DNA from: Candidatus Bathyarchaeota archaeon
GTDB lineage: Archaea; Thermoproteota; Bathyarchaeia; Bathyarchaeales; Bathycorpusculaceae
Reading direction: 5' to 3'
Length of the DNA: 64,000 nt
Assembly (NCBI GenBank): GCA_963782525.1
Contig: CAWAKC010000001.1
Span: forward strand, 288,001-352,000
Shown: piece by piece, positions 6,279 through 38,624 of the stretch
How positions within the stretch are numbered: the first letter of the stretch is position 1
Layout: each line of letters opens with the position of its first letter
Notes under the pieces: generated by a model
The model's input: only the letters and a program-made list of their open reading frames with translations
Database searches by the model: none
What the model was told of the DNA's origin: nothing
Position numbers and translations under genes: made by a program

Positions 6279-7502
6279 ATGAGTGAAAAATGTCTCGCTG
6301 TGGTTGAAATCGACCAAGACTTATGTAGCCGATGTTATGTCTGCAAATCAATCTGTCCCTATGAAGCCATAAAAGCGGATTCGACGGGCAAAGTTGAAAT
6401 AAACAGTCAAGATTGCCAGGTTTGTGGCATCTGCTACAGTGCTTGTCCTTCTGCAGCTATAAAAATGCAGTATTACAATTACGATAACCTAACAGAATAC
6501 CTCAAGAAGGAACAGGTCAAAGCCAAAAACGTTGATACGTTGGTTTTGATGTGTCGGGGAAACTCGCCTTCCACGGGGGAAGTTCAAGATATCCTCAAAG
6601 GCCAAGGACTTAAAGTTGATAACTACATGGCTATGCGTTTGCCCTGTGCAGGTCGAGTTCCAACGGACTTTGTGTTTGAAGCTCTCAATTTAGGCGTAAA
6701 GAACATTGTTTCTATCCAGTGTGAAGATCCATTCTGTCGCTACAAAGAAGGAACAAAAATTAACACCCGAAGACTGGCTTTAGCAAAGAATGTTCTAAAA
6801 CAGTTAGGCTTCGAAGAGAACGCAGTTAGAGTTGTAAAATTCTCACGCAAAGCAGTCTACGATGTACAAGCATGTGTGGGATGTGACAAATGCATCTTCA
6901 TCTGCCCATACGGTGCTCTAGAATTCGAATCCTTCGCCACCCCAAAAGTTAACGAAGAAAAATGCGTAGGATGCGGTGCATGCCAACTGGTTTGTCCACA
7001 CCACGCCATACAAGTGAAAGGCTTCGAGTTCGAAGACGTAGTAGACCGCTACGGCAAATCACTCGAGCAACTAAAAGCCAAAGGCAAGGGTCCAGCAGTC
7101 CTTGCATTCGTCTGTCAATGGTCAGAGTTCTCAGCGTTAGACAACCCCAACAAGGCGTTTGAAGGCAAAAACGTCTTAGCCCTTGAAGTTCCATGCTTCA
7201 AATCCCTCGACCCCGTTCACATCATAAACGCCTTAAACTGCGGCTTCGATGGCGTCATGGGAGTAGTCTGCTCAGCTAAAGACTGCAAACTCCAAGAAGG
7301 AAGAGACACAGCCGAACGCAACATAGCAGCTTTGAAAGTAGCACTCAAAAAATTGGGTTTGCTCGATCGATTTGAGCTATACGAGGAATCACCCAGATGC
7401 GCAGGCGAATTCGAGACAAAACTCGATGAATTCTACAAGAAAATTTCTGCTTTACCCAAACGTGAAGTAACTGTGGAGGCGACCGCAAAACGTACAAAAT
7501 AG
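6279..7502 (+). CDS. Polyferredoxin with two MvhD/FlpD-like 2Fe-2S domains
   Basis: Four CxxCxxCxxxCP motifs in two pairs, each pair followed by an MvhD-like unit (RLPCAGRV..CEDPFCRY; EVPCFKSL..CSAKDCK). Confidence 0.8.
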   Translation: MSEKCLAVVEIDQDLCSRCYVCKSICPYEAIKADSTGKVEINSQDCQVCGICYSACPSAAIKMQYYNYDNLTEYLKKEQVKAKNVDTLVLMCRGNSPSTGEVQDILKGQGLKVDNYMAMRLPCAGRVPTDFVFEALNLGVKNIVSIQCEDPFCRYKEGTKINTRRLALAKNVLKQLGFEENAVRVVKFSRKAVYDVQACVGCDKCIFICPYGALEFESFATPKVNEEKCVGCGACQLVCPHHAIQVKGFEFEDVVDRYGKSLEQLKAKGKGPAVLAFVCQWSEFSALDNPNKAFEGKNVLALEVPCFKSLDPVHIINALNCGFDGVMGVVCSAKDCKLQEGRDTAERNIAALKVALKKLGLLDRFELYEESPRCAGEFETKLDEFYKKISALPKREVTVEATAKRTK

Positions 7503-26868: not shown

Positions 26869-27039
26869 AAGAAACTATCACTTATTGAATATACAATTTC
26901 TATAAAGAAAGATACGAAGACGCGTAATACATCCAAAGCCTATCTGGCTGTTTATAGGATATTCAAATCTTAATCTAATTGGGTTGAAAGGCACATTTAG
27001 AGCATATAAAAAAATTAAGCGTATTTAGAGCATATTAGG

Positions 27040-27747
27040 TTAAAGTTTGCCAATTACTGATTCATGATCATCTACCTTTTCAAAATATCTTTCTTCTAAA
27101 GGCACGTAAGTCCTTGCATCAATCCGTATGGTTTTTGCACACTTGGGTCAATCATACTTCAGCGCTTTATCCTTTTGAACTAGATTGTTAATAACTTCAA
27201 TTTTAGGAAGATAAACCTCAAACACATACGGTAATTCAGTATTGCCACTACAGTGAGGACACGATATCTTTAAACTCAAAGTTTTTCCCTCCAGCCCTTT
27301 TGGAATTGACTTTCTAATTGGTAGGATAACATTAGCAATTGCAAGCTCAATTGAATTATAATTTTCCAAGAGCAAAATATCATCAGAGTCTTTGGTAACA
27401 AAGCCTTTTAAGTTTACATTCTTTTGACTGATTGGAATAATTATTGGTGTATCCTTGTTTGTGGAAAACTTAGCTTTCAAATTCCTTCTAATAGTCTTAA
27501 CTGCTAATGCGAAGCCTAACTCTTGATTAACAAATTGAGAGGACTTTCCTTTTTCTGTTAGCAACACAATCATAAAGGAACTATTAATGATTTCATTCTG
27601 AATGCGCAGCTTAAACCCTTCCTCGAAGCTAAGGTAGTTTTCCGCTTTGTATGGTCTAAACTGGACTATTCTTCCTAATGAATCATGAAGAAGTTGTGCT
27701 AAGTTATTGTCTTGTCCAGCGTAAGAGATGAAAATATTATAGTTCAA
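27040..27747 (-). CDS. TIR-domain protein with C-terminal Zn ribbon, interrupted by in-frame TGA (27148-27150)
   Basis: IFISYA..SQFVNQELGFA TIR motifs; CPHC..[TGA]PKC; 35 further sense codons to TAA at 27040. Confidence 0.75.
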
Positions 27748-27888
27748 GTACCATCCCTTTGGTTATTTAGGTAAAACATTCTTTTCCCTTTATTCAGCTA
27801 TAACTTTTTTGTAGGATTAACGTTCCAGAATTAGTTTTTAGAGGAACCTTATATGCAGAGTTGACCAGTCTGGGGTCCTAACTTAGGA

Positions 27889-28212
27889 TTGGTCAAAATG
27901 AAAATCAAAGGTTATCGATTTGAATGTGAGGTCTGTAATAACTCTGTAGTATCCAGTATCCAAGTTTTCTTTAGAAAGAATGGAGAGGTATCCTATGCTA
28001 GGGCTAGGCATATTGGAGCGGATAAGAAGTTCTACTACCATCAACAAAGCCTAGAATATGTCAACAGAAAACTTGGAGAAATAGTCCATATTGACCATGG
28101 TCAAGCTGCTAATATCCAATACATTGGTTAAACTAAGGGAGAATTAAGTAAAGATATTAAATTGGAGCCTTCGGCGGGATTTGGACCCGCGACCATTACC
28201 TTACCAAGGTAA
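27889..28212 (+). pseudogene. Putative N-terminal fragment (intN) of an SSV1-type split integrase
   Basis: 80-aa CxxC ORF pointing into the tRNA-Thr 3' end. Past one TAA (28129) the same frame reads TKGELSKDIKLEPSAGFGPAT across the tRNA antisense. Confidence 0.5.
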
Positions 28213-28239
28213 CGCCCCACCGGGCTAGGCTACGAAGGC
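28163..28239 (-). tRNA. tRNA-Thr(GGU)
   Basis: GCCTTCG/CGAAGGC acceptor stem, TTACC-TTGGTAA-GGTAA anticodon arm, T arm GCGGG-TCCAAAT-CCCGC, encoded CCA. Confidence 0.95.
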
Positions 28240-28564
28240 GTTTTTCTTTTTCTTCTTGAAAGTGATTGCGGTATGCAATAAAGAGCTTACGGTTACAGCT
28301 CTGCGTCGCAACAAATGAATCCAACAAAACACAATCTTTCATAAAACCGAGGCCTCCACAACCAATTCACTTTCAACATACTCCCACATTACACCCACAC
28401 AGCCCAACATACAATCCATGATAGCAGTGTGGACCAATCCATCTCTCCACACTCAAACCACAAAAGAAAAACAACCCAAACCAAAAAAGCAAACAAACCC
28501 AAACCCCTAAGTGTAGTGTGCAATTATTAGCGCCCACACCCACACAAAACAAAAAGTCAATGGC

Positions 28565-28580
28565 AAATAAATATTAAAGC
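28565..28580 (+). promoter_or_regulatory. Probable BRE/TATA of tRNA-Leu
   Basis: AAATAAATATTAAAG about 35-45 bp upstream of the mature 5' end. Confidence 0.4.
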
Positions 28581-28612
28581 AACCTAACCTATTTCACACT
28601 ACGCAATCTTGT

Positions 28613-28700
28613 GCAGGGGTCTCCAAGCCAGGTCAACGGAGTAGGGCTTAGGACCCTATCGCGTAGGCGTTCGTGGGTTCGAATCCCACCCCCTGCACCA
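28613..28700 (+). tRNA. tRNA-Leu(UAG)
   Basis: GCAGGGG/CCCCTGC acceptor stem, TAGGG-CTTAGGA-CCCTA anticodon arm, long variable arm, GGTTCGAATCC, encoded CCA. Confidence 0.96.
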
Positions 28701-29008
28701 TATATATAAATAAACTCTAGGGGTTCCCCTAGCGAAACTTTAGTTTTCTTTAGTGGCCTATCTCGACTGTGCCTTTGCCTTCGACAATGAAAAAAAGACA
28801 TCAAAACAAGACAACACTCACTATTTCTATTTTAAAGTAATGATTTGCGATTGTTTTTATGCAAAGATAACTTGATGTCGACTTTGGAATTTATTTGCAC
28901 TCACGATAGGTGAGGACATATTAAATACGTCTCAATATGATAGGAACCTTTGTTGGCAAATAACCTTCTGATAGATTATTTGTCAAACAGAATAGGAGAA
29001 AAAGAAAA

Positions 29009-31777
29009 ATGAATTTTTATAATAAAAAAATTAAGCTTTTTGCATTGATTCTCATACTGTCTATTGCTTTATCAGCGCTTTGTGCTTCTTTGCCAAACGC
29101 TAATGCGCATACACCGCCATGGAACGTTCCAACCTCAGCTTACGTTACTTGTGCGCCAGATCCCATTGGGGTTGGTCAACCAACCACTATCGTGGTATGG
29201 GTTGACAGATACTCACCCTTTGCAGGTGGCGGCGTAGGTCAACGTTGGGATGGCTTTACAATAAACATTACATCGCCTAGTGGAAAAACACAGATAATCG
29301 GTCCGTTCGAATCTTCAAGCGACGTCGGCAGCGACTGGAAATCGTTTACCCCTGATGAGGTTGGCACATACACCATCGTTTTCAGTTGGCCAGGAGAAAC
29401 AGCTAAACCCACAGCTGCCCTCCAAAACACTGGCTCCGCAACATTTGACATAAATAACAACGGCGATTTCTACCAAGGCTCGACAAGCGAACCCTACAAA
29501 CTAACCGTTCAAACAGACTCCGTTCCAACATGGCCAGAATCACCTATCCCCACAGATTATTGGACTAGACCGATAAGCGGTGCGAACAGAGATTGGTCAT
29601 CGCTCCCCAGTAACTGGCTTTTGGGTTCATGGCTATACCAGAACGTCCAACCAGCCGGCACCGGACCGAAATCCCCGCATATCCTCTGGTCGAACCCCAT
29701 TATCCCAGGCTATCCAGGAGGGCTCGTTGACGCACAATGGCCAGACATACCAGTAGATGCCAACGACTATGAGGGTCCATGGTCATCGCCGATAATCATG
29801 GAAGGAAAAATCTACTACAACTCTCCAGCCGTAGCAGACAGCAATCAATATGGGTACTACTGCCTCGACCTCCAAAATGGACAACAAATCTGGTATAAGA
29901 ACGGCACCGATAACGGACTCAACAACCCAGTAACATCCATAACAGGATCTTTTGGCGGTATTCTTCCCAGTCTCTCTCAACAATATCTCAGACTGACGAA
30001 CGGCCAACTATACTACTATTACTCAGTCAACGGACAGGGAGTGCTCGCTTATCTTTGGATACAATCAGGCACCACATGGTACATGCTTGACGCGACCACC
30101 GGAAACTTGATACTGACATTGATAAACGTGCCAGGCGGTACAGCCGCAACGGACGAAAACGGAGACTTGCTAAAGTACAGCTATAACGCGAATACAGGAA
30201 CGATTCTCTGCTGGAACTCCAGCCAAGCCATTTACCCCGGCGGAGTCACGGGGACAGGACAGCAACAATGGAAGCCTCGTATTGGCGGAGTAATCGACGC
30301 AGTTAATGACATCTCATGGCTCAACGGAACGTGGTCTGCAAGCCTGGGACAAACAATCAACCAGGCACTGTCTAAGCCGCACTCTGGATATACGATGAAC
30401 GTAACGGACGCCTCGCTGAAGAATTTGCCGGGAAACTTGGTTGGTGTTGTCGCTGACAATCGAGTGCCAAAGATACTGTTCGGTACTAACTTCCCTATAA
30501 CCGTTAACACTGGTTCAAGCGTCGGTTTAGACTATTTCCAAGCGTGGGCAGTAAAGATAAATGACCACGCGACAGACTACAGCCCTAATCCTGGCTACCC
30601 AAGCAACCTACAGAACAATCTTGGATTCACGACAACTTTGCTGTTCTCAAGAAATATACCAGTTCCAATTGCTGGCAAGAATTATACTTGGAGCATGACT
30701 GGATATAGCTACAGCGATGATGTCTTCTGCATAACTTGCAAGCAAACAGGCCAAATATGGGCCTTCAGCTTAACAACAGGAGAACAAGTCTGGGGACCAA
30801 CAACGACGCTGCCAGGTGGACCTATGGCATTCTACGGAGTTAGCACCAACTTCTATGACGGCAAGTGCATCGTAAACTCGGGCTACAGCGGACAAATAGC
30901 TGCTTACAATGCAAAGACCGGCGAGTCACTTTGGACATACAACTCCACTGCCGACGCACCCTACGAAGGCTACTACGGACCCAACATGCCGCTTAGCATA
31001 GGCGCAATATGCGATGGAATGATCTACACATACTCCAATGAACACTCACCAACAAAGCCACTGTGGCGCGACTCTTACCTGCGATGCATCAACGCAACAG
31101 ACGGAACAGAAATGTGGAAGCTACTCGACTTCAACCAGGGCTTAGGACTTGCAGACGGCAACATCGTAACATGCGACGAGTACACCAACAACATATATTG
31201 CATCGGTAAAGGACCAAGCGGACTTACCATAGATGCACCGAAAGGTGGCGTAACACAGGGAAACAGCTTTACAATTACGGGTATAGTCACCGACCAATCA
31301 CCAGGTGCAGTAGCATACGCAAAGAAATTCGGCCTCGTGAATGGATTGCCAGCGGTTTCAGATGATAGCCAACAGGCTTTCATGCAACAAATCTACCAGC
31401 AACAGGTAAAGCCCACTGATGTAAAGGGCGTTCCAGTAACGATCGATGCACTTGACCCCAACGGCAACATAATCAACCTCGGTACAGCTACTAGCAACGC
31501 CAACGGCTTCTATAGTTTCCAAGTTAATCCAGGCATGCTTACAGCGGGTGCAGGAACATACCAGGTCATCGCAACCTTCGCAGGCTCTAACTCTTACGGT
31601 TCATCAAATGCAGAATCTGCTTTCACACTCAATTCCGAAGCAACAGTCTTACCAACCGCTATACCTCAAACAAACCTAGCAACAACAGCAGACATAATGA
31701 CGTACATAGTTGCTGCAGCAATCGCAATAATCATCGCAATAGCCATAGTCGGAGCGCTTATACTCAGAAAGCGATAA
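29009..31777 (+). CDS. PQQ-like beta-propeller cell-surface protein
   Basis: Signal peptide, PTDYWTRP, repeated xLxTGxxxW blades, C-terminal Ig-like domain, TM and RKR; paralog of 38723..41593. Confidence 0.85.
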   Translation: MNFYNKKIKLFALILILSIALSALCASLPNANAHTPPWNVPTSAYVTCAPDPIGVGQPTTIVVWVDRYSPFAGGGVGQRWDGFTINITSPSGKTQIIGPFESSSDVGSDWKSFTPDEVGTYTIVFSWPGETAKPTAALQNTGSATFDINNNGDFYQGSTSEPYKLTVQTDSVPTWPESPIPTDYWTRPISGANRDWSSLPSNWLLGSWLYQNVQPAGTGPKSPHILWSNPIIPGYPGGLVDAQWPDIPVDANDYEGPWSSPIIMEGKIYYNSPAVADSNQYGYYCLDLQNGQQIWYKNGTDNGLNNPVTSITGSFGGILPSLSQQYLRLTNGQLYYYYSVNGQGVLAYLWIQSGTTWYMLDATTGNLILTLINVPGGTAATDENGDLLKYSYNANTGTILCWNSSQAIYPGGVTGTGQQQWKPRIGGVIDAVNDISWLNGTWSASLGQTINQALSKPHSGYTMNVTDASLKNLPGNLVGVVADNRVPKILFGTNFPITVNTGSSVGLDYFQAWAVKINDHATDYSPNPGYPSNLQNNLGFTTTLLFSRNIPVPIAGKNYTWSMTGYSYSDDVFCITCKQTGQIWAFSLTTGEQVWGPTTTLPGGPMAFYGVSTNFYDGKCIVNSGYSGQIAAYNAKTGESLWTYNSTADAPYEGYYGPNMPLSIGAICDGMIYTYSNEHSPTKPLWRDSYLRCINATDGTEMWKLLDFNQGLGLADGNIVTCDEYTNNIYCIGKGPSGLTIDAPKGGVTQGNSFTITGIVTDQSPGAVAYAKKFGLVNGLPAVSDDSQQAFMQQIYQQQVKPTDVKGVPVTIDALDPNGNIINLGTATSNANGFYSFQVNPGMLTAGAGTYQVIATFAGSNSYGSSNAESAFTLNSEATVLPTAIPQTNLATTADIMTYIVAAAIAIIIAIAIVGALILRKR

Positions 31778-31799
31778 TAAAAGCTAATTAACCAAAATC

Positions 31800-31820
31800 A
31801 ACCCCCTTTTTTAGTTTTAA
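31800..31820 (+). terminator. Oligo-T archaeal terminator candidate
   Basis: CCCCCTTTTTTAGTTTT about 25 bp after the stop codon. Confidence 0.4.
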
Positions 31821-32366
31821 ATCAACAGAAAAGGTATTTGGATCGCGAACTCTGATAAATGTTCACTTAGAATTTTCAACTTCGTTCTCCTTCAGTGTTT
31901 CCAGAGCCTCAGTGTGAACCTTGTATTTAGGCTTCTGTAAGAAAAGCAACTGCATTAACTTCACGAAGGATAGCCATGGCGCCAATTAAATTGGATCGTT
32001 TAGGTCTTACCTTTAAGGTGATTGTGTGAGACCGTTACAATCCTTGTGCTCCGGAAAAGGCATAGCAATCCATAAACAAACATAACTTTCCCTCTTTTTT
32101 TGAATTGGAGAAATAATCGGGATATATCAGTAAAAAAAGAAGTCCCGCAAAGATCGAGAGTTTAGTGACCGAATCGATAACAAGAACGTGGTAGACGCAA
32201 ACTATACAACCAACATTATTTTTTCCTCAAAAAAAGGGAAGCGTGAGATTTTGCCCACTTCATTCTTTCAGAATCCACAAAGATTACTTTTCTCACAGCA
32301 GAATTTTTAGCAAAAAAAGGAGAAAGTGGCTGCGAAGAAACTATAATTGGCGATATCTCCCGCCGA

Positions 32367-32394
32367 TCGGGGTTCGAATCCCACCCCTGCACCA
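32367..32394 (+). repeat. tRNA-Leu 3' copy R1 (att-like)
   Basis: TCGGGGTTCGAATCCCACCCCTGCACCA versus tRNA TCGTGGGTTCGAATCCCACCCCCTGCACCA. Confidence 0.92.
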
Positions 32395-32525
32395 AAAAAA
32401 GTAACCTGAAAACCGCTGCTAAACATTATTATTCAATAGTTTTTTAAGGCGACATAACAATAACCTGTCATTCACCGTAGGCATTTACCTATGGTTGGGA
32501 GTTAAAGAATAGCCTTATCCAGGAC

Positions 32526-33641
32526 ATGAAAATCATGAATAAAAAATTGCTCTTAACTATTATTATTGCCTTTTTCCTTTTTTCAGTTGTAATAATTCCA
32601 CAAATAGCCAATTGCCAAACAGCAACAACACAGTCAAGTATAACGCCAACACCAACGGGAGCAACCGAACAAGGAAGCTCTCTTAATTTATTACTCATGG
32701 TTGGAATCATCGTTGCCGTGGTTGCAGTTATTGGAGCCGCATCTGCATTTATTGTTATGAAGAGAAGGGTGAATGAAAAAAGCCTGAGAAAAGTTTCTGC
32801 CCGTGCCTTCGAAGAGTGGGTGATTAAAAGATTTAATGGAAAACCAAGCGATTTATCTTCGGGAGTAAATGGGTTTACACAAGGAGGTCAACCGCTTTTG
32901 ATCATACAATCCGATCAGGTCAGTTTGGCTGAGGTTGAAGACTTTGTCAAAGTATTAGTAAAGGGAAGAGCACAAAAAGGCACAATATTGGCTTTAAATT
33001 TTGATAAAGATGCGATAGAAGGAAAAATAGCGGCCATGGATAATGGAATTGAACTTCAACTGTTACCCATAAATGAACTGTTGAATAAACGCTTCTCTAA
33101 GAGGATCGAAAGCCTTGCCCTTTCGCCAGTGACCTTTGAAGCTCCACTTACAGGTATTTCAGAAAACCCTCTGACAGAAACAAGATCATTTGAAAGAATG
33201 CCAAATATAACTCAAAATGAAGGTCTAAAACCACGAGTCTTTATATCAAATAGCAACACTAAGGTGGCTGATCAAGTGAAGAAAATGGTAGAGTTTCTTC
33301 ATTATGACTATGTTGTGGGTGACAAAAAAGAAACATCGGTGCCGATTTCTGATAGTAAATTTGGGTTAATGAAAGACTGCGATTGTGCGATAATAAATAT
33401 CGCTGCTGCTGAACAAGAGAGAAGGTACAGTGGACTTTACGTCCTTAATTCAAATGTCACTTCAGAGATCAATGCGGCTTATCTAAAATATAACACGCAA
33501 GTGGTTTTGCTGGTTGAGAGAAAAATAGACCTCCCCCCAAATCTTAAGGGTCTAAAAAGAATCGAATATGAAAGTGATGATCTATCGTTTAATGCTGCAA
33601 TGGATTTGGAGAAAATATTGGCTGACTTTAGAAAACTATAG
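32526..33641 (+). CDS. Membrane-anchored Mrr-like + CAP12/Pycsar-type TIR domain protein
   Basis: Two N-terminal hydrophobic segments; SARAFEEWV..GVNG Mrr-cat-like region; RVFIS..CDCAII..NVTSEIN..VLLVE..LPPNLKG TIR-like region. Confidence 0.7.
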   Translation: MKIMNKKLLLTIIIAFFLFSVVIIPQIANCQTATTQSSITPTPTGATEQGSSLNLLLMVGIIVAVVAVIGAASAFIVMKRRVNEKSLRKVSARAFEEWVIKRFNGKPSDLSSGVNGFTQGGQPLLIIQSDQVSLAEVEDFVKVLVKGRAQKGTILALNFDKDAIEGKIAAMDNGIELQLLPINELLNKRFSKRIESLALSPVTFEAPLTGISENPLTETRSFERMPNITQNEGLKPRVFISNSNTKVADQVKKMVEFLHYDYVVGDKKETSVPISDSKFGLMKDCDCAIINIAAAEQERRYSGLYVLNSNVTSEINAAYLKYNTQVVLLVERKIDLPPNLKGLKRIEYESDDLSFNAAMDLEKILADFRKL

Positions 33642-33692
33642 GAGATTGGGTTCTCAAAGCCTGCTTTGAACCAAACGTATACACTGTTTTGA

Positions 33693-33722
33693 GGGGGTTA
33701 GAATCCCACCCCCCCTGCACCA
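33693..33722 (+). repeat. tRNA-Leu 3' copy R2
   Basis: GGGGGTTAGAATCCCACCCCCCCTGCACCA. Confidence 0.88.
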
Positions 33723-33897
33723 ATTTAATTAAAAATAGCAAGCCCTTGGTTGGCAATGTTAGATAGTTATTTTTGCCTATCGTGTAAGATAACGATGGAT
33801 AAAAATAGAAGTTGGAACGATGAAATCATAGTAGTAACAGAATCTTTCGAAGGTCTGTTAAGTCTCTGTTTAACTTGGAGCAGGAACGTCGCCCAAA

Positions 33898-34119
33898 CTA
33901 TACTTCATTGTAGAGGTTGCAGGTTGGACACTTTAACACAACGTTCTTGAATTTTCCTTCGATGATAGTCTCGCCTACTTTTGCCCCACAATTGCCACAT
34001 AGATAATCAGTATTACCACCTTTGCTTTTTATTACTGGCAAGGTTTTAGATGCGAAAACAGTTTTGGTTCCCTTTTTGGGTTCGGGTATAGTTTTTAATT
34101 TTCTGTCCATTTTGTCCAC
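33898..34119 (-). CDS. Small Zn-finger protein
   Basis: YLCGNCG..LKCPTCNLYN. Confidence 0.7.
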   Translation of the reverse strand: MDKMDRKLKTIPEPKKGTKTVFASKTLPVIKSKGGNTDYLCGNCGAKVGETIIEGKFKNVVLKCPTCNLYNEV

Positions 34120-34252
34120 TTACTTCGGTTTTTATTGGTTTGACTTAGATTAAAAGTTTATTGCTTGCTGATTCTTTGCGCATAAATTTCCGCGAAAAAG
34201 AAAAAGGACATTACTAGGAAAAAATGAAAAGATTGGCGACATCACCGCTATG

Positions 34253-34281
34253 TCGTGGTTGGAATCCCACCTCCTGCACCA
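34253..34281 (+). repeat. tRNA-Leu 3' copy R3
   Basis: TCGTGGTTGGAATCCCACCTCCTGCACCA. Confidence 0.88.
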
Positions 34282-34448
34282 TAATCTAACCCTACTTCAT
34301 TTTCACTACAGAAATTATAAAGCCAAAAATGAAAATCAAAAAAGAAGCATTAGATCGGGTATCTGTTCTATAGGTCACCTTTCTAAATCAAACAAGGTGA
34401 GGCTTGTTTGGTTGGTGGTAACAATGGCTTTTGAATTTAACGCCAAGC

Positions 34449-35582
34449 TTATCGGTTTTCGATTGAAACAAATGAACGGTTGAATTCACCAACGTACTTT
34501 GATTCTGGACGCAAAAGAACAGCATCTTCATACTGTTCAATTATATTGGCTACCCAACCAGTAATTCTGCTTGAAGCAAAAAATGAAGTGAAATACTCTT
34601 TTGGCACTCCTAAAGCATCCATCGTAACAGCAGCATAAAAATCAACGTTGGGATAAATTTTCTTCCTTCTGTAAACTATTTCTTCAATCTTGATACATTT
34701 ATTATACAAGCCTAATGTTCTGTCACGATGGCAAAGGTCTTCCACCATACCTCTCAAATGTTTAGTTCTAGGGTCTTGTGCCCTGTATATCCTGTGACCA
34801 AAACCCATAATCTTTTGCTGGTCATCTAACAACCCGTGGATGTATTCTTCCACTTCTTCGTCAAGTTTAATGTCATCAAGCATCTCCATCACTTTCTCAC
34901 TAGCTCCACCATGCAATGGTCCTTTGAGTGTCCCAATGGCTGCAGTCACAGCTGAATACATGTCTGAATTAGTGCTTGCTGTTACGCGGGCAGCAAAGGT
35001 GGAAGCATTAAATCCATGATCAATATGAAGAGTCATGTAACGATGTAAAACTGTGGTTTCTTTCTCGTTTGGTTCAGCACCTTTAAACATGTACAAGAAG
35101 TTTTGGGCAAAGCTGAATTCCGGCTTAGATTCGGGAACACTCTGGTTAAGGCGGCTTCTGTGGATAGTAGCCACTATTACTGGAACTTGGGCTATTAGGC
35201 GTGTAGCTCTTCTCATGTTTGCGGCATCAGAGAAGTCGTCGCCGTCAGGATCGTATTCGCCAAGATGAGAAACTTCAGTTCGTAAAATATCCACCGGATG
35301 ACAATGTTTAGGGGAACGTATGATACTTTCAACTATTGGAGCTGGAAGTTTCATGTCAGAAACAAGCTCAGTTTGATAAATCTCTAGTTCTTTCTGGTTT
35401 GGGAGTCTCTTATGAACTAGAAGGAAAGCCATTTCTGTATAAGTAACTCGTCCAACAAGATCATCGATGTTATACCCTAAATAGTAAAGAGCTCCATTAT
35501 AATCCACGTAGCTGATTCGGGTTTCAGCTGCAGCAACATCTTTCAGTCCGCGAACAACGACTCTCTCAGAGTTAATAGTCAT
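34449..35582 (-). CDS. Citrate/2-methylcitrate synthase
   Basis: DHGFNASTF, GPLHGGA, GFGHRIY..DPR, PNVDFY. Confidence 0.93.
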   Translation of the reverse strand: MTINSERVVVRGLKDVAAAETRISYVDYNGALYYLGYNIDDLVGRVTYTEMAFLLVHKRLPNQKELEIYQTELVSDMKLPAPIVESIIRSPKHCHPVDILRTEVSHLGEYDPDGDDFSDAANMRRATRLIAQVPVIVATIHRSRLNQSVPESKPEFSFAQNFLYMFKGAEPNEKETTVLHRYMTLHIDHGFNASTFAARVTASTNSDMYSAVTAAIGTLKGPLHGGASEKVMEMLDDIKLDEEVEEYIHGLLDDQQKIMGFGHRIYRAQDPRTKHLRGMVEDLCHRDRTLGLYNKCIKIEEIVYRRKKIYPNVDFYAAVTMDALGVPKEYFTSFFASSRITGWVANIIEQYEDAVLLRPESKYVGEFNRSFVSIENR

Positions 35583-35827
35583 ACAAATTCATCCTTACGT
35601 ATTTTAGCACATGTACCTTTACGAAAAAAGTAGAAAGCTAACAAATCCATTTCTATTGGAAAAGTGATTATTCCACCTTTTACCTAAACACACGGTCTCC
35701 CTTACCACTATCGACTATTAAACCCTTGGTTGACTAAGAAACAAAAAAAGCGTAATAGGGTACTACGCCGTCGCTTAGGAAAAGACGACCCCTAAAGCGA
35801 AATAATACAAAAGAAAATTTTCAGCTT

Positions 35828-36253
35828 CTAAGCGAAGCTAACAAATTTTTTCGGTTGATTACTCGTTGCAAAAGTCCAGAAGTGCGCTGTGCATTTGATG
35901 ATTTTAAGGAGTATCAGCCCTGGGTTTTCTGGTGTTAGTCCTGCCTGCTTTAGGAATGGTCGGGCGTCAAGAAGCTTCTTTTTCATTTCTATATCTTCAA
36001 GGAATTCAACTGTGCCTGTTACCCTCATTTGCTGCATTTCTTTGCTTTTAGGATTAAAGAAGCATACTTCAACCTTAGGATTTGCTTTCAACTGCTTGTA
36101 GATATCTTTTCCAGCGGCAGAGCTGTAATATAGACCTGACTTGTCAGCGTACCAAAGTTGAAATCCTCTCACCCGAGGTTGTCCATCATCTACAGTTGCT
36201 AAGAAGCCTATTGGATTTTCATTTGCAAACTTGATATATTCATCAAAATCCAT
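35828..36253 (-). CDS. Pyridoxamine 5'-phosphate oxidase-like FMN-binding protein
   Basis: LATVDDGQPRVR..KQLKANPKVEVCF..RVTG. Confidence 0.88.
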   Translation of the reverse strand: MDFDEYIKFANENPIGFLATVDDGQPRVRGFQLWYADKSGLYYSSAAGKDIYKQLKANPKVEVCFFNPKSKEMQQMRVTGTVEFLEDIEMKKKLLDARPFLKQAGLTPENPGLILLKIIKCTAHFWTFATSNQPKKFVSFA

Positions 36254-36401
36254 CTAAATCACAAAATCTACTATTTCACCCCAATAGTAATAACTTTTGG
36301 TTTACCATAAAACCAGACCTTTATTGCTTTATCAATCGCCATTAGCAAAGCACATAATATAACCCAAATGAATGAGAGGTATGCGGGAGACATCTCCATT
36401 C

Positions 36402-36432
36402 TCAGAGGTTCGAATCTCACTCTCATTCAACA
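36402..36432 (+). repeat. Highly degenerate tRNA-Leu 3' copy R4
   Basis: TCAGAGGTTCGAATCTCACTCTCATTCAACA, preceded by GGAGACATCTCC, which resembles the R1/R3 flank. Confidence 0.6.
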
Positions 36433-36540
36433 TCGTAAAAATTACTTTTTGCACCCTCTAATTAAAAGAAGAAGAAAATGCTGCCCCACAACACTTCTTC
36501 TTTCAATTATGGAAGCATAACCAAGGAGAACACTTGGAAA

Positions 36541-36747
36541 CTATAATTGATGATAGACGCTTACCAGCAGGACGGTAGAAGTTGTTGTTGTTGCTGCTGC
36601 TGCAACTGCATTCTGCAGACCGGTTGCAACAACAATCAAAGACAAACCCAAATTGCCAAGCTTACCCTTACTGAAACACAAGTCAAACCCATAGAAGATA
36701 ATGATGCTAATGATGATGCAAACCAATTTTGCACACAACATTATCAT
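36541..36747 (-). CDS. Possible small membrane protein
   Basis: Two hydrophobic stretches and a low-complexity AAAATTTT tract; could be non-coding. Confidence 0.25.
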   Translation of the reverse strand: MIMLCAKLVCIIISIIIFYGFDLCFSKGKLGNLGLSLIVVATGLQNAVAAAATTTTSTVLLVSVYHQL

Positions 36748-36783
36748 CAGTCAAAACTAAACTCAATCTTTGATCCAAAAAAA

Positions 36784-37704
36784 TCATGCTTTATCTTGCA
36801 ACGTCGAGCAAATTAATTTGTTCACTTCGGTAACAGCCTTAATTGACACTTCCAGCATGTCGTCACTTGGTTCTTTGGTGGTTAAATGTTGAAATGCCAA
36901 TCCAGGTGCGACTAGAACTTTTGTGATGGGGGAATCTTTGTATTTGCCACTTAACCGCAGGAGCTCGTAGCTGATTCCAGCGATGACGGGGATTAGGAGA
37001 ATGCGGTAGGCAAAGTTGACTAGGAAGCCGAGATTTGGCATTATTGTGAAAAGGACGATGCTGATTATCAGCACAATGAAGAGAAAACTGGTGCCGCATC
37101 GGGGATGCAGACGTGAATATCCTTTTACGTGTTCAACGTCCATGAGGGCGCCTGCTTCATGTGCATGGATAGCCTTGTGTTCCGCACCATGATACATCAG
37201 CACCCGTTTGTATTGACCCCACAGCGAGAGAATAGACAAATAACCAACAAACATGGATAAGCGAATTACAGCCTCAACCACATTGAAGACGACACCCTTA
37301 AGGTCCAACCAAGTTGAAAGCAAGAAAGGAACCAAAAAGAAAACAGCCATTATGCCTGCGACGCCACCTACGAGCAGAGCGATTTCTCCCACGCCAAACT
37401 CTAATTTTTCCGATTCTTTGCCCTCTTCACCCTCAATTTCAAACGCTGTGGAAGCCGAAAACATCATGGTCTTAACGCCCACGATTAAGCTTTCAACCAT
37501 ATTCACCACGCCCCTAAAAATTGGCCACCCCAAAATCCTGTGTTTTTCAGAGTAGGGCGTGATTTGTTTGATGTCTGTTACTATTTCATTTTTGGGGTTT
37601 CTGACGCAGGCTACCACATGTTTTCGGGAGCGTATCATTACTCCTTCGATTAATGCTTGTCCACCAAATGCAAGGGACGGTTCTTTCCTTAAATTTTCTG
37701 ACAT
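36784..37704 (-). CDS. DUF1385 membrane protein
   Basis: GGQALIEGVM, YHGAEHKAI, HPRCGTSF, QxLTTKEP. Confidence 0.9.
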   Translation of the reverse strand: MSENLRKEPSLAFGGQALIEGVMIRSRKHVVACVRNPKNEIVTDIKQITPYSEKHRILGWPIFRGVVNMVESLIVGVKTMMFSASTAFEIEGEEGKESEKLEFGVGEIALLVGGVAGIMAVFFLVPFLLSTWLDLKGVVFNVVEAVIRLSMFVGYLSILSLWGQYKRVLMYHGAEHKAIHAHEAGALMDVEHVKGYSRLHPRCGTSFLFIVLIISIVLFTIMPNLGFLVNFAYRILLIPVIAGISYELLRLSGKYKDSPITKVLVAPGLAFQHLTTKEPSDDMLEVSIKAVTEVNKLICSTLQDKA

Positions 37705-37883
37705 GCCCTATTATCCACACGGCGTTGTTACTGATTATAACCTGGCATGTGTTTGCATATAAATACCGCTCAATAAAGGGGCAACACATCTGGAAACGAA
37801 CTCGAGCAATCATAGATTCTGCACTTTAGAAGAGGAAGCTATCTCTGAACCGCTAGAAACCGTCAGTGAACTTGACAGGCAAC

Positions 37884-38624
37884 TTAATTTTTCCTCGTTA
37901 GGCGTGGAACGAAGCGGGGCGTGGTGTGTTTGTATTCGAGGAATTCTTCGCCGTATTTTGCTTCAGACTCTTTCTCTTCGATTTTTGCTAGACGCCAATA
38001 CAGTAATGCTAAGACGGGCCAGAGTGCGGTTGTGATGATTGTTAACCATTGAATATTCAGGCCGCCAGTGATAAGCAGGAACCCTATGTATTGTGGGTTG
38101 CGAGTATACTTGTAGAGCCCTGTTTTAACGAGTTTACCTTTTGCCTCGTAGATTTGGTACCAACCAAAGACTACCAAGAGGATTCCAAAGCCGATTACAA
38201 ATTTTGATAATGGAAAAACATAGTAATGGTAGACATTGTAGAACGCGGTTTGTCCTATTACCTGGGTGAGGAGAAATTCAATGCTGAAGATTTTAATGTA
38301 GCCAAAGGCGCCCATGAAGAAATACATCGTTAACGGTATGCCATACATTTCAGCAAATAAAGCTACGATGAAAGCTACGTAGACGCTGTTTGGTAAGCGG
38401 TTGAGTTTTTTTCTAAAAGATGAGAGTAAAAAGAACACGCTGAACAGCACGATGTTCATGCCAACAAACATCCAATTTCCGTAGCCAACTGAGGTAAAAG
38501 TAAAGTAATACATGAAAACAGCGACGACAAAAGTGACAACAAAGACCAGCGCTACCCATTTAATTTTGCCCTTTGTTTCTGCATTTAGTTGATCAAAATT
38601 TAAGGATTTCATTACAATAATCAC
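37884..38624 (-). CDS. ICMT/PEMT family membrane methyltransferase
   Basis: ALFAEMYG.PLT, LVKTGLYKYTRNPQYIG, EE..YGEEF..Y..PRF. Confidence 0.85.
   Translation of the reverse strand: MIIVMKSLNFDQLNAETKGKIKWVALVFVVTFVVAVFMYYFTFTSVGYGNWMFVGMNIVLFSVFFLLSSFRKKLNRLPNSVYVAFIVALFAEMYGIPLTMYFFMGAFGYIKIFSIEFLLTQVIGQTAFYNVYHYYVFPLSKFVIGFGILLVVFGWYQIYEAKGKLVKTGLYKYTRNPQYIGFLLITGGLNIQWLTIITTALWPVLALLYWRLAKIEEKESEAKYGEEFLEYKHTTPRFVPRLTRKN

Follow-up and report, generated by a model that had tools for sequence, protein, structure and literature searches.

A conserved non-coding arm beside copies of tRNA 3′ ends in Bathyarchaeia: a probable attachment-site arm of tRNA-integrating elements rather than a relic of a split integrase

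The DNA considered here is a window of 64,000 nucleotides (nt) from a Candidatus Bathyarchaeota archaeon (GenBank assembly GCA_963782525.1, contig CAWAKC010000001.1, positions 288,001 to 352,000), whose genome (G000) comprises 2.87 Mb at 43% G+C in 12 contigs. Within it, an intact transfer RNA (tRNA) gene, tRNA-Leu(TAG), is followed by four copies of its own 3′ end, termed R1, R2, R3 and R4, each consisting of the T arm and the 3′ strand of the acceptor stem and all lying on the + strand (Table 1). The copies alternate with four cassettes in the order tRNA-Leu, cassette 1, R1, cassette 2, R2, cassette 3, R3, cassette 4, R4. Their identity to tRNA-Leu begins at the T arm and is ~26 nt in length, and the sequence GGTTNGAATC[CT]CAC is found at only five places in the whole genome, namely tRNA-Leu(TAG) and R1–R4. 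A direct repeat of a tRNA 3′ end downstream of the intact gene is the mark of a right-hand attachment junction (attR), and the locus is a decayed, integrase-less stack of four cassettes in which tRNA-Leu(TAG) served as the target for integration and forms the left junction (attL), whilst the tRNA-derived part (the core) of R4 is the right-hand limit of the variable array. The subject of this report is the non-tRNA sequence that flanks these attachment (att) copies.

In R1, R3 and R4, a near-palindrome, GGNGAYATCNCC, is found ~10 nt upstream of the tRNA-Leu copy. The flank reads ATTGGCGATATCTCC at 32346–32360 in R1 and ATTGGCGACATCACC at 34232–34246 in R3, with ATTGGCGAYATC common to the two, and R4 carries GGAGACATCTCC; over 40 nt, the R3 arm (repeat D2) is 75% identical to that of R1. 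These sequences are present exactly as quoted in the original prediction, which was made from the sequence of the window and held that the att copies share a non-tRNA flank. This is correct for R1, R3 and R4 and incorrect for R2, which has no motif: the likeness that had been pointed out between CACTGTTTTG in R2 and CACCGCTATG in R3 amounts to 7 of 10 positions and is at most a possible decayed remnant. Likewise, the span that had been given (32346..36412) does cover the repeats, but its limit is too narrow, as the feature reaches left to the tRNA at 28613, and the two hairpins described in R1 and R3 exist but fall within the spacer, which varies among the units.

The flank had been interpreted as a conserved peptide, read antisense, that resembles the start of int(C) in an SSV-type (‘suicidal’) integrase gene, such that the pattern GFEP-x3-GD[IV][AS] would be leftover coding sequence. 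The translations themselves, GFEPRSAGDIA for R1 and GFQPRHSGDVA for R3, are correct, lie in the same frame and differ by conservative changes; they are the sole matches to the proposed pattern when the whole genome is translated in six frames, and split integrases do exist in this genome, on contig C11. However, the stop-to-stop frames that contain them are just 41 codons (R1) and 23 codons (R3, across the arm) long. Among 32 related units no frame is consistently open through the flank, and each antisense frame stays open for at least 100 codons past the motif in at most two of them. As the distance between motif and T arm is either 10 or 11 nt, ‘GD[IV]’ and ‘GFEP’ often fall out of frame with each other, as they do in R4, and the frame is broken in this way in about a third of 183 units. 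GFEP itself is GGTTCGAATCC read backwards; any T arm read antisense yields it, and a GFEP ‘peptide’ beside an att copy thus says nothing about a split integrase. The junction was found in none of the 120 relatives from the SSV-type family PF16795 among the matches listed (pattern GFEP-x-GD[IV][AS]) and in none of 63 classical integrases. When seven integrases of the genome, one integrase from locus L060 and the N-terminal (IntN) fragment of the split gene described below were used as tblastn queries against positions 27001–38000, nothing better than an E value of 0.18 was obtained. Coding on the sense strand, where GGN GAY ATC TCC would give G-D-I-S with synonymous changes, was also considered and rejected, there being no upstream start or open frame and all three sense frames being short. 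The flank is a non-coding attachment-site arm and not the remnant of a split integrase.

What a genuine SSV-type split integrase looks like can be seen in the same genome, outside the window, at G000:C11:54299-58269 (locus L016:2300-6270). Here IntN (L016:2350-2634, − strand) is a zinc-ribbon open reading frame (ORF) of 94 amino acids (aa) that runs antisense into an intron-containing tRNA-Arg(CCT) gene (...AGEEGFEPSTPNLGGW... / ...MAGEEGFEPSTPNLGGW...). Some 3.7 kb further on, an integrase ORF (L016:5416-6270, − strand) with a weak PF16795 match and one late frameshift carries in frame a second copy of the tRNA 3′ half (...AGGEGFEPSTPNLGGMLHG...), and the att sequence extends to the anticodon loop. 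PF16795 has four weak matches across the whole genome, none of them in the window. Nearly all of the 120 listed relatives of the C11 gene carry PF16795, and 37 of these 120 have GFEP in their first 120 residues, where it is always followed by STPNLGG, LTLSLEG or a similar sequence, which is what the variable loop and anticodon arm of a tRNA give when read antisense. A profile of 74 relatives detects the C11 gene with an E value of 6e-128 and its frameshifted tail with 2e-19, as against a best value of 0.75 in window positions 28000–37500. The parts of PMC8371274 that were available give ~40–50 bp of att identity, reaching into the anticodon arm, for the SSV-type, which the ~26-nt window repeats starting at the T arm do not match, and describe suicidal integrases mainly from hyperthermophiles. 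Taken together, the peptide reading of the flank is refuted and the chance that it will prove right after all is negligible.

Comparison between strains shows that the units are sites at which DNA has been gained or lost. The genome G115 is 94–96% identical to the window, but its homology ends at the end of tRNA-Leu (28700) and picks up again at 32364–32371, at the R1 core, so that cassette 2 (96% identity) stands directly behind tRNA-Leu and cassette 1 is missing there. Further along, ~6 kb of other DNA takes the place of 34200–36404, and homology returns at 36404, where the R4 core starts, and continues at 90.6% into the conserved flank and its genes. In a third genome, G107, tRNA-Leu(TAG) is followed by a single 7.3-kb island that ends in a canonical unit, the core of which equals the tRNA-Leu 3′ end across the stretch printed and the 12-mer motif of which has one base change; no integrase was detected in this island. 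The DNA between this tRNA and the common flank thus differs in all three genomes of the one genus, with the T arm always as its boundary, and the insertions are present or absent between strains with their breakpoints at the repeats, as is expected of attR. Reads from four public DNA runs gave short contigs only, of which two begin aligning at 32370 (weak); a weak joint from 28700 to 33891 is seen in one contig with a side of 29, which lies under the trust limit, and positions that these contigs leave uncovered carry no weight.

The arm is not peculiar to this locus. GGNGAYATCNCC occurs at 19 distinct sites in the genome (25 matches when both strands are counted), none of which lies within any listed tRNA gene; the flank thus has no match in a tRNA gene of this genome. 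At eight of the 19 sites a T-arm-like GGTTCRAAT, judged by eye, is found ~9–11 nt behind the motif; three of the eight are R1, R3 and R4, another four are found on C11 near tRNA-Arg(CCT) and tRNA-Cys, and the last is on C10. A search for the motif followed by N8-12 and GRTTCRAW in 101 genomes of the same Bathyarchaeia family matched 106 times, in 41 genomes from 33 of 70 genera, as against a single match for the reversed pattern, which means that the pairing of motif and T arm is more than chance. A metagenome scan with a stricter pattern added at least 125 loci, whilst viral contigs scanned with an arm-plus-T-loop pattern gave no match, and hence no free circular form was seen. When 52 units were aligned, positions −17 to −1 and +12 to +14 proved to be conserved too, although the pattern by which the units had been collected fixed only the 12-mer and the T loop; conservation ends abruptly at −18, and the sequence further to the left has random composition. 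The module so defined is 33 nt long, AAAAA(A/G)GGGGnTTTGCG-GGWGAYATCTCC-AYT, and is followed by ~7 variable nt and then the tRNA 3′ end. In its canonical form, AAAAA(A/G)GGGGnTTTGCG stands ahead of the 12-mer and A(C/T)T behind it, and this form is present at R4, on C11 and C10 of G000 and throughout the family; a long subtype, to which R1 and R3 belong, has ~20 nt between the A/G block and the 12-mer (GCTGCGAAGAAACTATAATT in R1) and is also found in G104, G107:C3 and G115:C3. The cores behind the arm are the 3′ ends of Leu, Arg, Cys, Phe, Pro, Ala and Ser tRNAs. Of 183 distinct units, 118 have the motif 11 nt from the T arm and 62 have it 10 nt away, whilst the spacing is 9 nt in two and 12 nt in one.

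Such a unit might be taken for a small tRNA-like RNA gene or the 3′ half of a split tRNA, in which the A-rich box ~23 nt upstream of the motif centre would act as promoter and the palindrome would form the anticodon stem. With a 10-nt spacer, TCTCC does come to lie at tRNA positions 39–43 and GGAGA at 27–31, R4 folds with a 10-bp acceptor-like stem, and the unit is conserved though integrases are absent nearby. Against this, R1–R4 have no Rfam match up to an E value of 1 and no ARAGORN call, the duplex energy of each unit's own pairs (−8.56) does not differ from that of mismatched pairs (−8.44; p 0.32, 183 units), and motif positions 3 and 10 lack stem-like covariation. A single anticodon stem sequence could not suit seven kinds of tRNA, the cores repeat the end of an intact tRNA that is found a few kb upstream, and the strain breakpoints fall at the cores, all of which makes an RNA gene of this kind very improbable. 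The idea that the 5′ G block is the 5′ strand of an acceptor stem was dropped, as it shows no covariation and the 10-bp stem of R4 is a one-off. That stem is a perfect 9–10-bp complement, GAATGAGAG / CTCTCATTC, within 36370–36429, which pairs the 5′ end of the arm with the decayed acceptor strand in a tRNA-like mini-fold of −21.5 kcal/mol not common to the other units.

The proteins with which the arm is linked are a set of tyrosine integrases of ~400–440 aa, encoded by whole, unsplit genes and carrying an N-terminal zinc ribbon. A representative from the genome of the window (G000 C6:36014-37294) has 426 aa, a CxxC...CxxC zinc ribbon and a PF00589 score of 73 bits. It has 405 relatives among species genomes, with ~45% identity among relatives, and the family is present in 91 of the 101 genomes, with up to 17 matches per genome; an association of units and integrase at the level of genomes is uninformative as a result. 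Their position is more telling. Of 74 loci that could be assessed (six others being too short), 62 have a tRNA no more than 260 nt from the integrase stop codon, and in 58 the two are convergent. Typically, the integrase gene points towards the tRNA and ends ~30–60 nt beyond the tRNA 3′ end. The tRNAs concerned (Pro, Cys, Ala, Arg(CCT), Leu, Asn, Phe, Gly, Ser, Met, Thr and Ile) include the kinds seen in the units.

In complete elements the order is tRNA, convergent unsplit integrase, cargo, module and repeated tRNA end. In G104:C10 an integrase lies on the opposite strand 60 nt from tRNA-Ala, and units with cores identical to the 3′ end of this tRNA are found 14.7 and 26.5 kb downstream. In G081:C92, from the genus of the window, tRNA-Pro (313–391) and an integrase (1688–430) are followed at 6536 by a unit whose core is identical at 26 of 26 positions, directly after which stand the C-terminal codons of another integrase. 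Junctions of arm, core, ~40 nt and integrase stop codon are also present at L060, L062, L184 and L280, and the arrays on C11 of the genome itself have integrase C-terminal remnants immediately right of the tRNA or att copy (L016 6364–6215, E value 5e-7; L017 2641–2444, E value 2e-19). These junctions and whole elements together place the arm on the side of the element's attachment site (attP) that faces away from the integrase gene, from where it is kept at attR. Two parts of the original prediction are borne out. One is the inference that a single integrase family, with crossover close to the T arm, gave rise to all units; the strain breakpoints do lie at the T-arm start. The other is its fallback, a retained recombinase arm, as the flank proves to be a lineage-wide attP arm linked to one family of tyrosine integrases with unsplit genes. 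The elements are of the classical type II and not of the suicidal SSV-type.

A few loci suggest variants of this layout. At L060 (G031:C4, 2476–3473 in oriented coordinates), a classical-family integrase without its first ~150 residues is encoded on the strand of tRNA-Arg(CCT), starts 5 nt past the 3′ end of that gene and runs towards a unit, with which it is convergent, and many matches to family integrases start near residue 110–140; a short or split form of the zinc-ribbon integrase may therefore also exist. At L058 (G031:C1, 15308–16275 in oriented coordinates), a copy of the first ~37 nt of an intron-containing tRNA-Pro lies ~850 nt upstream of that gene, with a fragment of a zinc-ribbon integrase on the other strand between the two, which looks like a duplication of the 5′ part of the tRNA, unlike the 3′ duplications found elsewhere.

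The arm could also be mainly a signal for transcription. Read antisense it consists of the palindrome, CGCAAAnCCCC and a T run, and it might stop transcription coming from the integrase side or insulate a cassette. A run such as the TTTTT(T) with which the antisense strand ends is a typical archaeal stop signal, and the convergent integrase gene has the arm downstream of it in attP. On the other side of the core, however, the stretch that leads to the integrase stop codon (P′) already contains an inverted repeat (e.g. CTAGGGGTTCCCCTAG after tRNA-Leu), a T run alone would suffice, and 12 of 12 motif bases with fixed spacing would not be expected to persist across genera whose integrases share just ~45% identity. 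Nor is it an integrase promoter, a role that was tried and rejected, as none of 60 full-length integrase genes has the motif within 1.5 kb upstream of its start; the single G101 motif case looks like a deletion remnant. We consider a primary role in transcription unlikely.

The explanation that we favour, and regard as probable, is that Bathyarchaeia are pervaded by a family of elements that integrate at tRNA genes, and that the flank is the element-side (P) arm of their attachment site. In such an element, attP would consist of the 33-nt arm, ~7 variable nt, the core (from T arm to tRNA 3′ end), a short P′ and the integrase stop codon; in P′ no conserved motif was obvious, apart from local inverted repeats and short C-rich stretches that echo the acceptor strand. 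Crossover within or next to the T arm would rebuild the tRNA at the left, whilst the right end of the element would keep the arm joined to the displaced tRNA 3′ end, as an att copy with its flank. The stack seen in the window would be the outcome of several rounds of integration at tRNA-Leu(TAG) and of a later loss of the integrase genes. As the arm has a strict orientation, stands a single helical turn away from the core and has changed far less than the integrase (~45% identity), it is probably bound by protein during recombination, be it the integrase itself, perhaps by way of its zinc ribbon, or some accessory protein.

Several observations weigh against this explanation. Neither an integrase nor a recognisable remnant of one was found in the window by tblastn, by the classical and SSV profiles or by a genome-wide Pfam search, the best E value of the classical-integrase profile in 28000–37500 being 1.3, and the link between arm and integrase family consequently rests on other loci. 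R2 lacks the motif upstream of its core. Integrases are absent near most units: none of 75 flanking ORFs within 1.5 kb of units is an integrase (75 of 116 ORFs were scanned, shorter overlapping ones being dropped), and 7 of 80 metagenome loci have a piece of integrase within 2 kb of the unit. Nor is the link exclusive: three of five integrase-bearing genomes have no exact match to the motif; at L049, the expected side of an integrase–tRNA pair is free of units for 8 kb; junctions such as L069 and L086 have different arms; and the core of the G101 unit mismatches the tRNA-Ala that stands beside its integrase. Mixed cores are also found, with a Pro/Gly-like core behind tRNA-Leu at L280 and Leu-type and Ser-type cores on either side of a cassette-1 homologue, and these are not explained by simple serial integration at one tRNA.

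The mixed cores lead to a further possibility. The cassette-1 homologue is a copy, 93% identical, that is found at another att array (G115:C3 and G107:C3), where a decayed Leu-type unit stands before it and a long-subtype arm with a Ser-type core after it. The arm and the tRNA 3′ end together could be a portable recombination site, comparable to the attC sites of integrons, by which cassettes without an integrase, often of a single gene, would be captured, stacked, swapped and moved between tRNA genes whilst the abundant zinc-ribbon integrases act in trans. Crossover in the T loop, which is nearly universal, would explain how one arm comes to stand before seven kinds of core, how arrays come to mix cores, and why cassette 1 is found behind a Leu core in one strain and before a Ser core in others. 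Cassette 1, which has no integrase, does differ in place and in cores between strains, but deletion or homologous exchange could give the same picture, and we hold this extension to be conceivable though doubtful.

The cargo of the cassettes is given in Table 1. The TIR call in cassette 2 rests on a match to the Pfam entry CAP12-PCTIR_TIR at 0.0011, under the curated cut-off, and the cassette 3 protein matches zf-LITAF-like at 0.00096, likewise under the cut-off; the zinc ribbon of the latter has no significant similarity to the N-terminal zinc ribbon of the integrases (tblastn E value 0.66; profile E value 3.3). In the wider set, the DNA between tRNA and unit is mostly ordinary cargo (33 of 44 ORFs were scanned), with examples that include an MFS transporter, a cupin, a short-chain dehydrogenase, peptidase M55, radical SAM and AsnC proteins.

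Table 1. The tRNA-Leu(TAG) array: positions within the window of the tRNA, the cassettes and the repeat units.
Feature	Position	Strand	Description
tRNA-Leu(TAG), intact	28613..28700	+	ARAGORN; Rfam tRNA 48.9 bits
Cassette 1	28701..32311	+	ORF 29009-31777, 922 aa, PQQ-like beta-propeller surface protein; Pfam PQQ_2 1.3e-9
R1 arm, long subtype	32312..32368	+	A run 32312-32318, then GGAGAAAGTGGCTGCGAAGAAACTATAATT
R1 arm detail	motif GGCGATATCTCC 32349-32360; spacer 32361-32368	+	widest open frame 41 codons
R1 core	32369..32394	+	tRNA-Leu T arm, acceptor 3′ strand and CCA copied; one C shorter
Cassette 2	32395..33692	+	ORF 32526-33641, 371 aa, membrane-anchored, weak TIR-like C-terminal domain
R2 core	33693..33722	+	tRNA-Leu 3′-end copy; T loop altered, two extra C
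Cassette 3	33723..34194	-	sole ORF 33898-34119 (-), 73-aa zinc-ribbon protein
R3 arm, long subtype	34195..34254	+	A-rich stretch, ATT and motif GGCGACATCACC at 34235-34246, spacer
R3 core	34255..34281	+	tRNA-Leu 3′-end copy, two mismatches
Cassette 4	34282..36365	-	citrate synthase 34449-35582 (-), Pfam Citrate_synt 3.7e-122
Cassette 4, second gene	35828-36253	-	PNPOx-like protein, Pfam PNPOx_N 4.4e-18
R4 arm, canonical subtype	36366..36404	+	GAATGAGAGGTATGCG, motif GGAGACATCTCC at 36386-36397, then ATT
R4 core	36405..36429	+	tRNA 3′ end, strongly decayed; repeat D3

A number of other features are found around the array. Two TIR-type proteins flank the tRNA pair (tRNA-Thr and tRNA-Leu) and the first att copy: a 199-aa TIR_2 protein (27148–27747, − strand; 7e-9) and, at 32526–33641 (+ strand), the cassette 2 protein with its weak match to a CAP12/Pycsar-type TIR. 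Defence at an integration hot spot is a possible role for both genes. Between tRNA-Thr and tRNA-Leu, at 28372–28555, lies a C/A-rich dispersed repeat of ~180 nt that has 13 copies in the genome at 74–100% identity and is found in relatives of the genus too; several of the copies are a few hundred nt from tRNA genes or att fragments (C1:576956, C3:90888, C7:330502). Immediately right of R4, at 36577–36755, is a second dispersed repeat with 19 genome matches, many of which span just its first ~75 nt; it overlaps small ORFs and could represent a signal that surface proteins have in common or a segment coding for their anchor. Lastly, GAAACTATAATTGATGATA at 36537–36555 equals the R1 arm sequence GAAACTATAATTGGCGATA (32337–32355) at 17 of 19 bases. 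It lies ~100 nt past R4, within the flank that is conserved in G115, with no T arm behind it, and may be an older fifth unit or due to chance.

Archaeal integrases are divided into type I and type II (PMC8371274, in the parts available). With the classical type II elements (lambda-like or pNOB8-type), those described here share the whole integrase gene beside a rebuilt tRNA, the duplication of the tRNA 3′ part at the far end, an element-specific arm at attR, and tandem stacking and decay at one tRNA. They differ from them in that the block of identity is short (~26–30 nt, from T arm to 3′ end), that a single 33-nt arm serves at least seven kinds of tRNA in 33 of 70 genera, and that most copies are found on integrase-less islets of 0.5–7 kb. 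The SSV1-type (PF16795) also targets the 3′ part of tRNAs, yields GFEP from the antisense T arm and has members in this genome, but its attP lies inside an ORF and covers the anticodon arm, giving the junction GFEP-STPNLGG or the like, whereas the flank in the window lies in no ORF and has no likeness to PF16795. In Sulfolobus, stacks of decayed elements and captured genes are found at tRNA genes, and gene capture at archaeal tRNA genes was reportedly described there by She et al. in 2001. As there, the integrase has been lost and captured genes are bracketed by att remnants beside a tRNA; the remnants in Sulfolobus, however, are int(N) and int(C) fragments, whereas here the marker is a non-coding arm. 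Integron arrays, with their attC sites, are similar in that short and mostly single-gene units each end in a conserved site module and that the content varies between close strains. Here, by contrast, neither an IntI-type integrase nor attI nor a common promoter is present, half of the site is tRNA, cassettes stand in either orientation, and movement without an integrase is hypothetical.

What appears to be new is the use of one 33-nt arm for many tRNA targets across an archaeal family, together with the abundance of integrase-less islets that carry it. No description of the arm or its 12-mer was found in the portion of the literature that was searched, though the supplementary integrase tables of PMC8371274 might already list the integrase family; in the portion of two Bathyarchaeia papers that was covered, integrases are mentioned in passing only. 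Bathyarchaeia are uncultured and abundant in sediment, soil and peat, and their mobile elements have been little charted. The arm followed by a T arm provides a DNA signature for the right ends of one major class of their integrated elements, by which the borders of islands can be set to the base, an integrase family can be matched to its site, and strain-variable cargo (surface proteins, TIR-like proteins and metabolic enzymes) can be listed. If the cassettes are mobile without an integrase of their own, archaea would have a counterpart to the gene capture of integrons, and, were the portable-site reading to hold true, the tRNA genes of Bathyarchaeia would be native platforms for gene capture and not just graveyards of dead proviruses.

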